NCBI GenBank assembly: GCA_016839815.1
Contig: JAEOTM010000066.1
Location: forward strand, 20,116-84,115
Length of the DNA stretch: 64,000 bases
Direction: 5' to 3'
Source of the DNA: Candidatus Hodarchaeota archaeon
Lineage (GTDB): Archaea; Asgardarchaeota; Heimdallarchaeia; Hodarchaeales; Hodarchaeaceae
A program made the position numbers and the translations under genes. Below, piece by piece: positions 30,687 through 64,000 of the stretch (within the stretch, counting starts at the first letter, position 1; each line of letters starts with the position of its first letter). The notes beneath the pieces were generated by a model that was not told the DNA's origin, searched no databases, and saw nothing but the letters and a program-made list of their open reading frames with translations.

Positions 30687-31322
30687 TTGAATACCGAATC
30701 ATCATCCAAAGACGAAACACCTCCCTCCTTATCTTTTGATATGAAAAAACCTCATTTATCTATTGAAAAACCATTTGCTTCTGATATCTTTGAAAATGGG
30801 TATTTTGGTAGATGGATATCGGAGAATACTCTTAGTTTAGAGCCTGAAGAAATTCTACTTCTCCTTGATAGAGGCAGGATTATTTTAGAATTGACAAATA
30901 CTGGTAAAAGAATTGAGTCAGAAGAATTGGTCGTTCATTTTACATCGCTTAATCCAAATTTCTGGAGTCGATATTTAGTGTATAAAGATTTACGCAATCG
31001 AGGATATGTAGTTAGCATTGGAACACGAATAACAGCTCCATTTAGAATATACTCAAGAGGAGGAAAACCTGGAGAATCTGTTAGTAAGACGGTTATTTAT
31101 CCGATCCCTGAAGGTGAAGATATTGATCTGAATCTTCTTGATCAGATTGTAAAACAATCAAAAATTGATAGAAAAACCTTATTATTATCAGTTATTGATA
31201 GATTAGGAGATGTGACATACTACCAAGCTTCACAGTTGGAACTTGAATTCAACAATCTAGATTATGAGTTTAGAGACGAAATTTCTCCCTCTAATCTTAT
31301 CGAGGAAGAGGAGGAAACATAA
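30687..31322 (+). CDS. endA: tRNA splicing endonuclease family subunit (probably structural/non-catalytic)
   Basis: YLVYKDLRNRGYVV, FRIYSRG and RKTLLLSVIDRLGDVTYY; the catalytic His position reads ESVS. Confidence 0.85.
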   Translation: MNTESSSKDETPPSLSFDMKKPHLSIEKPFASDIFENGYFGRWISENTLSLEPEEILLLLDRGRIILELTNTGKRIESEELVVHFTSLNPNFWSRYLVYKDLRNRGYVVSIGTRITAPFRIYSRGGKPGESVSKTVIYPIPEGEDIDLNLLDQIVKQSKIDRKTLLLSVIDRLGDVTYYQASQLELEFNNLDYEFRDEISPSNLIEEEEET

Positions 31323-39250: not shown

Positions 39251-39358
39251 GCTGCTGTGGCTTAGTTGGTAGAGCGACAGACTCGTAAGGATTCTCGTAT
39301 TCCATGATATCTCCGAGTTATCTGTTGGCCGTGGGTTCAAGTCCCACCAGCAGCTCCA
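39251..39358 (+). tRNA. tRNA-Thr(CGT) with 32-nt intron (39288-39319), CCA encoded
   Basis: GCTGCTG/CAGCAGC acceptor stem, ACAGA-CTCGTA[intron]A-TCTGT, central BHB helix CTCG/CGAG. Confidence 0.94.
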
Positions 39359-63740: not shown

Positions 63741-63767
63741 AGAAAGAAAGAAAAAAATAATAAAAAG
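63741..63767 (-). terminator. T-rich terminator after the 5S locus
   Basis: Minus strand CTTTTTATTATTTTTTTCTTTCTTTCT immediately after the outer stem. Confidence 0.55.
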
Positions 63768-63807
63768 TGTTTGAATCTCAAAGCGCTTTTTCTCTAGGGG
63801 ACATTGT

Positions 63808-63927
63808 TTCCGGGTTCGGAATGAGACCGGGTGTGACTCAGGCCCTTTGGCCGAAGAACCTTCAGCTTTCCGATGTTCCCGTAGGCGCGAGCACAACAGT
63901 ACAGATCAGAACGGAGCCTGACTTAAC
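63808..63927 (-). rRNA. rrf: 5S rRNA gene, circularly permuted (3' half 63927-63861, linker GGTTC, 5' half 63855-63808)
   Basis: Conserved 5S segments CACACCCGGTCTCATTCCGAACCCGGAA and GTTAAG...GTACTG...GGGAAC occur in swapped order; helices I (TTCGGC/GCTGAA), II (GCCTGA/TCAGGC), III (CCGG/CCGG) and V (TTCTGAT/ATCGGAA) all form. Confidence 0.92.
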
Positions 63928-64000
63928 TTTCGGCAATATCTCACAGGATATTTTAGCGCGTGTTTCAGCACAAGACGTCTGTTTGCGAGATTACAAACCA

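Follow-up and report, generated by a model that had tools for sequence, protein, structure and literature searches.

How does a Hodarchaeales (Asgard) archaeon obtain a normal 5S rRNA when its only 5S gene is written back half first? This question is raised by the minus strand near the end of a 64,000-nt stretch of DNA (hereafter the window; GenBank assembly GCA_016839815.1, contig JAEOTM010000066.1, positions 20,116 to 84,115), where an initial annotation made from the sequence alone had described a circularly permuted 5S rRNA gene bounded by bulge-helix-bulge (BHB)-like signals of the tRNA-splicing type. That observation holds to the base. With this gene order, a normal 5S can form only if the transcript is cut and its ends are re-joined, probably into a 120-nt ring.

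Gene Order and Identity of the Locus

Read on the minus strand, the locus begins with GATATTG (63940-63934), CCGA (63933-63930) and AAG (63929-63927), continues with GTTAAGTCAGG...AAGCTGAAG (in longer form, GTTAAGTCAGGCTCC...GGGAACATCGGAAAGCTGAAG), GTT (63859-63857) and CTTCGGCCAAAGGG...CCGAAC (in full, CTTCGGCCAAAGGGCCTGAGTCACACCCGGTCTCATTCCGAAC), and ends with CCGG (63813-63810), AAA (63809-63807) and CAATGTC (63806-63800). The stretch between the two predicted cuts, from G63927 to A63808, is 120 nt long and encodes a complete 5S rRNA in permuted order. The 3' part is encoded first (63860-63927, minus strand) and comprises GUUAAG, the 3' strand of helix II, helices V and IV, loop E and the 3' strand of helix I, GCUGAAG. 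The GUU loop (63857-63859, minus strand) follows at the point where a normal 5S has its two ends, closing the 7-bp helix I (GCUGAAG/CUUCGGC). The 5' part is encoded second (63808-63856, minus strand) and contains the 5' strand of helix I, loop A, the 5' strand of helix II, helix III and loop C.

The Rfam 5S covariance model (RF00001) does not reach its gathering score of 38 bits anywhere in the window. With relaxed settings it aligns only loop C and helix III (model positions 27-51, posterior probability 1.0, 20.8 bits) and gives a poor global match of 16.6 bits, since the model cannot see a permuted gene. The initial annotation had proposed running RF00001 on the re-ordered sequence; instead of Infernal, an nhmmer profile was used here, built from 12 canonical-order 5S genes of other families of the same phylum. 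The re-ordered 120 nt match this profile end to end (positions 5-115, 57.8 bits, E 2e-19), whereas in genomic order the match breaks into two hits in swapped order, with profile positions 45-115 (at 63860-63927) lying upstream of positions 4-50 (at 63808-63856). Folded as a circle, the 120 nt adopt the 5S three-way junction with helices I, II, III and IV/V.

Uniqueness and Distribution

The gene lies 60 nt from a contig end, as window base 64000 is the last base of the contig (C6 in this assembly). A second contig of the same genome (C149) ends inside the same gene and shows the same order, with one difference within 180 nt (C at window position 63875, A at about position 1601 of C149); it also supplies the upstream sequence, including a TATA-like AAATATATAAAG about 25 nt before the first base of C6. 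Either two strains are present in the bin, which is 89.5% complete with 7.8% contamination, or there are two gene copies; both variants occur in congeners. A misassembly, such as collapsed tandem 5S copies, had been named in advance as an outcome that would overturn the reading, and it is contradicted by the comparative data: both flanks are unique, non-5S sequence, and the same order is found in congeners and in closed chromosomes.

A search for a normal 5S copy, likewise suggested beforehand, returned no other 5S candidate in this genome. The joined sequence CCGAACCCRGAAGTTAAG is absent from the DNA of all 22 genomes of the genus. In five single-contig genomes, three from this genus and two being the closed Heimdallarchaeum chromosomes, no RF00001 match exceeds the threshold, and the only weak matches are at the permuted loci. 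Two exact-pattern scans of the JGI metagenome contigs (241 million records) also found no joined form, which indicates that no canonical-order gene of this clade exists there, although it says little about RNA because these records are mostly DNA.

The order proved to be shared by relatives, another check that the annotation had proposed. A BLAST search recovers it in 19 of 21 congeners, and a covariance model built from the permuted alignment matches 20 of 21, including three single-contig genomes. Over the whole class (Hodarchaeota, that is, this genus, Heimdallarchaeota and Kariarchaeota, of the phylum Asgard), this model matches full length in 75 of 83 genomes, including 14 of 14 high-quality ones; for the numbered families of the set, the counts are f1 20/21, f2 2/2, f3 28/31, f4 12/12, f5 9/12 and f7 3/3. 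Copy number varies: two adjacent permuted copies occur in genome G023 (locus L025, family f2), and among G048 and G084 of family f7 there are up to four copies at contig ends in G048, where the run of copies lets RF00001 just reach its threshold (38.4 bits) across a copy boundary. Furthermore, in genome G001 of this genus (L022:1494-1684), and probably also in G016 (L023), the permuted 5S carries an extra 30 nt inside loop C. A 4-bp helix UCCG/CGGG with bulges AAA and AAC, next to an 8-bp hairpin, fits a BHB there, and cutting by the rule restores CAUUCCGAA|CCCGG exactly; this would be a 5S gene that is both permuted and intron-bearing, although eleven other 4-bp combinations occur by chance in the same stretch.

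Other Asgard classes also have the permuted gene, with shifted or different break points. In one Loki-type genus (g53; loci L077 and L079) the gene is broken inside loop C, again within a BHB-like motif (GCG-CUGG-AA|C ... CCGG-UC|A-CGC), while other genera of the same family break it before GUUAAA, which points to more than one permutation event or to a moving break point. In contrast, the Asgard families f31, f12, f28, f19 and f30 have normal 5S genes. Some of those in f31 (L087-L089; genomes G317, G370 and G316) deviate from the model just after GUUAAA and score below the Rfam threshold (32-37 bits); in G317 and G370 the match is about 30 nt longer than a normal 5S, which looks like an insertion. 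Outside Asgard, a scan of the genome collection also hit Woese-, Pace-, Micr- and Bathyarchaeia, a Desulfurococcales bin and several bacteria, but on inspection all of these are normal-order 5S genes with a chance AAGTYAAR upstream and none has a BHB. A permuted 5S in these groups was consequently rejected.

The Flanking Motif

The leader strand GAUAUUG (63934-63940, minus strand) pairs with the trailer strand CAAUGUC (63800-63806, minus strand) in a 7-bp outer helix. Next to it, the leader tetramer CCGA (63930-63933, minus strand) faces CCGG (63810-63813, minus strand) in a central helix which in this species consists of three pairs plus an A.C mismatch, as the initial annotation stated; four pairs are present in 9 of 16 relatives. 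A 3-nt bulge follows on each strand, AAG (63927-63929, minus strand) and AAA (63807-63809, minus strand). This layout is identical to that of a tRNA gene in the same window (39251-39355, plus strand; RF00005, 61.7 bits; anticodon read as CGU), which carries a 34-nt intron in a canonical BHB (ACAGA-CUCG-UA|A ... CGAG-UU|A-UCUGU) and is missed by ARAGORN but found by Rfam. The archaeal splicing endonuclease cuts after the second nucleotide of each bulge, a rule that is also read from this tRNA intron. Applied to the 5S locus, it places the cuts between 63928 and 63927 (AA|G) and between 63808 and 63807 (AA|A), and joining the ends of the middle piece writes ...CCGAACCCGGAA-GUUAAGUC..., with the junction CCCGGAA|GUUAAG of the conserved 5S sequence.

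The conservation of the flank pairing, whose absence in relatives would have counted against the motif, was examined across 16 species. In the outer helix, 5 of 7 pairs change on both sides and 95.5% of cells are paired. The central helix is 89% paired, with one compensatory C-G to U-A change, and helices I, II, IV and V of the 5S are 91-100% paired, with 12 pairs changed on both sides. For the whole structure, flanks and 5S helices together, 96.2% of cells are paired and 18 pairs are doubly changed; none of 500 shuffles reaches this, and sliding the partners by 1-3 columns gives 26-49% paired.

The same rule was then applied blindly to 88 distinct loci matching a permuted-order pattern. In this genus, in Loki-type, Jord-, Odin- and Freya-type genomes and in Asgardarchaeum, the best-scoring motif has a 4-bp central helix and a 7/7 outer helix. 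In these lineages, and in most of family f3, the cuts give the canonical 6-nt spacing between CGAHC (CGAAC in the present gene) and GUYAAR, with two break registers (0/6 and -1/5), the cut being at GGAA|GU in some lineages and at GGA|AGU in others. The Kari-type loci also score 4/4 and 7/7 but give a 7-nt spacing, and family f3 keeps the 4-bp central helix while its outer helix next to the motif is short (0-5 of 7 pairs). The leader tetramer always complements the four nucleotides that end 2 nt before the 3' cut, in at least six sequence versions (CCGG/CCGG, CUGG/CCAG, CAGG/CCUG, CGUG/CACG, CUGG/UCAG, CGGG/CCCG), and in most lineages it cannot pair with the other strand of helix III. The roughly 30 non-Asgard hits, which are ordinary 5S genes, show no such motif and serve as negative controls.

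In this genus, however, the motif is relaxed rather than strict. The inner helix is at best GUU/AAC (3 bp) and invariant, and if it forms, the 5' bulge shrinks to 2 nt; whether the motif has flanking helices on both sides is left undecided, while the Odin, Jord and Freya lineages have full 3-nt bulges plus GUU/RAY. Because CCGG is its own complement, ViennaRNA and RNAalifold prefer to pair the leader CCG with the 5' strand of helix III, and the BHB conformer lies 2.3 kcal/mol above the minimum free energy fold. The overall fold energy of the precursor is no better than that of shuffles (z -0.7), so that folding energy neither supports nor refutes the BHB in this genus, and the comparative data decide. 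As the annotation had pointed out, the central helix uses the 3' strand of mature helix III, and the RNA must refold after processing.

A second tier of the processing stem is tentative. GCGCU (63955-63959, minus strand), identified by eye, pairs with AGCGC (63783-63787, minus strand). Single-sequence shuffle tests are not significant (p 0.1-0.9), and the element is kept only because helices of different sequence occur at the same position in congeners (GCGCC/GGCGC, ACGCC/GGCGU, UUGCG/CGCAA, GUUACGC/GCGUAAC). Downstream, the T-rich stretch TTTTTATTATTTTTTT (63751-63766, minus strand) is the likely transcription stop, as archaeal terminators are oligo-T runs.

Probable Processing Enzymes

Two tRNA-intron-endonuclease (EndA) genes lie on this contig. 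The first, just upstream of the window (C6:19449-19997), encodes 182 aa with both Pfam domains (PF01974 and PF02778) and Tyr/His/Lys, and its best solved relatives are the catalytic subunits of the two-subunit crenarchaeal enzymes (3p1z_B, E 2e-43). The second (window 30687-31322, plus strand) encodes 211 aa (PF01974 63 bits, PF02778 28 bits; a faint Sen15-like match, E 0.005); the catalytic His of its 182-aa paralogue aligns with Val, and it is probably a structural subunit. This suggests a heteromeric enzyme, a type that accepts relaxed motifs, although the assembly of the two proteins was not examined and the gene data alone do not settle the point. An Asgard EndA built from two different subunits would be of interest for the origin of the eukaryotic Sen complex. 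A full-length RtcB is also present (490 aa, 554 bits).

Proposed Maturation and Alternative Readings

Taking these features together, the following pathway is proposed. A transcript of about 240 nt would start near window base 64000, downstream of the TATA box on the overlapping contig, and end in the T-runs at 63766-63751. Leader and trailer would pair into a processing stem whose inner part is the BHB motif, EndA, here probably heteromeric, would cut after the second nucleotide of each bulge, and RtcB would join the 2',3'-cyclic phosphate and 5'-OH ends of the 120-nt middle piece. Helix III could then form in place of the leader pairing, and the product would be a covalently closed 120-nt ring that folds as a normal 5S with helix I capped by a 3-nt loop; this ring is proposed as the form built into the ribosome. 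The interpretation given in the initial annotation is supported: the permuted order, the capped helix I, the BHB layout, the restored junction, the 120-nt product at 63808-63927, the clash with helix III, the Asgard origin and the failure of standard callers were all reproduced. Gene order, uniqueness, conservation, covariation of the motif and presence of the enzymes rest on the sequences themselves, whereas cleavage, ligation and persistence of the ring are inferred, as no transcript data for this genus were obtained and EndA cleavage was not assayed. That the transcript is cut and joined at all is considered likely; that the ring is the mature form is only slightly more probable than not. 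The indirect argument for the ring is the helix I cap, which in 58 distinct permuted Asgard 5S genes is 3-6 nt, never longer, and in 37 of them is a YNCG tetraloop (UUCG 17, UGCG 11, UACG 6, CUCG 3), as expected of a retained structural cap rather than of a spacer that is removed.

The annotation left the choice between a ring and a re-opened molecule undecided, and the present data do not separate the two. It is possible, though rather unlikely, that the ring is only an intermediate and that the cap is opened to give a linear 5S with normal ends. Permuted tRNAs are matured in this way, through a circular intermediate opened at the acceptor stem (PMC3978253, PMC3218864), and circular pre-16S and pre-23S are re-linearised in several archaea (PMC12918454). 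However, the cap is short and mostly a stable tetraloop, no second BHB or other conserved signal lies there, and the linkers of permuted tRNAs are longer and are cut by RNase P and tRNase Z, which have no known 5S counterpart. Less likely still, the transcript may be cut at both bulges but not ligated, so that the ribosome carries a linear, permuted 5S with its ends between helix III and GUUAAG, as in organellar permuted 5S rRNAs (PMC4267664); base pairing in helices II and III could hold such a nicked molecule together. On the other hand, EndA products carry the ends that RtcB joins, the known excised BHB products of archaea (tRNA introns, pre-rRNAs, SRP RNA) are found as rings (PMC4731332, PMC12918454), and the cuts leave no extra or missing base in either break register, a precision that a nicked molecule would not need.

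It is improbable that the leader-trailer stem serves another nuclease and resembles a BHB partly by accident. The A.C mismatch, the lack of a clear inner helix and the alternative pairing preferred by folding programs would allow it, and other RNases act on archaeal pre-5S (FAU-1/RNase W, PMC11602121). Nevertheless, the 4-bp helix and the 2-nt offset of both cuts are kept across Asgard classes with different sequences and break points, another nuclease would not explain the exact restoration of the junction, and without ligation the conserved GAAGUUAAG stretch would be split. An assembly artefact or a dead gene, for which only the position at a contig end, the single-base difference between the contigs and the quality of the bin could speak, is very unlikely, since the order recurs in congeners and closed chromosomes, all helices covary and no other 5S gene exists in this genome or genus.

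A wider reading is about as likely as not: in Hodarchaeales, and in most Asgard archaea, the 5S rRNA of the working ribosome would be a covalently closed ring, 5S production and hence ribosome assembly would depend on the tRNA-splicing endonuclease and RtcB ligase, and the permutation would have arisen more than once in the phylum, given that different break points exist and some families keep the normal order. 5S rRNA is universal and its gene is taken to be trivially findable, yet here a whole class of the archaea closest to eukaryotes encodes it in an order from which no functional 5S can be made without RNA cutting and joining. This ties ribosome biogenesis to the tRNA-splicing machinery. 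It also explains the published failure to find 5S genes in closed Heimdallarchaeum genomes (PMC8813620) and the "missing 5S" in completeness checks, for which the permuted covariance model offers annotators a concrete remedy, and it may add the first circular 5S to the recent finding of circular 23S rRNA in archaeal ribosomes.

Comparison with Known Systems

Permuted RNA genes restored by the splicing machinery are already known for tRNA and SRP RNA; what is new is the extension of this arrangement to a universal ribosomal RNA across a major archaeal lineage. In agreement with the statement in the initial annotation that no such gene had been described, full-text searches found no paper on a permuted or circular 5S rRNA in archaea. 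The permuted mitochondrial 5S rRNAs (Valach et al. 2014, PMC4267664) likewise have helix I closed and new ends elsewhere, and are missed by standard models. They are, however, organellar, and the permuted form itself is reported to be the product, with no splicing-type restoration described.

In archaea, 16S and 23S pre-rRNAs are excised at a BHB in a leader-trailer processing stem and circularised, and in some lineages the ring or a permuted form is what sits in the ribosome, as for circular 23S and the permuted 23S of Pyrococcus (PMC12918454, PMC7758197). Those genes are collinear and circularisation joins the natural ends, whereas here the gene itself is permuted and ligation would create an internal, conserved part of the molecule. 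A 2026 paper states that archaeal rRNA circularisation involves 16S and 23S "but not 5S" (PMC12918454), a statement drawn from other lineages which speaks against the present reading.

In the circularly permuted tRNA genes of Cyanidioschyzon merolae and Thermofilum pendens (PMC3978253, PMC3218864), as at this locus, the 3' half lies upstream of the 5' half, the native ends are linked by a short intervening sequence and a BHB forms from leader and trailer; a circular intermediate is made by the splicing machinery. The tRNA ring is then re-opened at the acceptor stem by end-processing enzymes, while the 5S cap is a stable loop of 3-6 nt with no known opening activity.

The closest precedent is the permuted SRP RNA gene of Thermoproteus tenax (Plagens et al. 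2015, eLife, PMC4731332), in which a universal, essential structured RNA is encoded in permuted order, the canonical gene appears to be missing, and the RNA is cut by EndA and functions as a ring. In that case the ring was shown by RNA-seq and cleavage assays, which have no counterpart here, and the arrangement was reported for some Thermoproteus species. In contrast, the RNA considered here is a ribosomal RNA, and the layout spans a whole class and several further classes of a phylum, with more than one break point.
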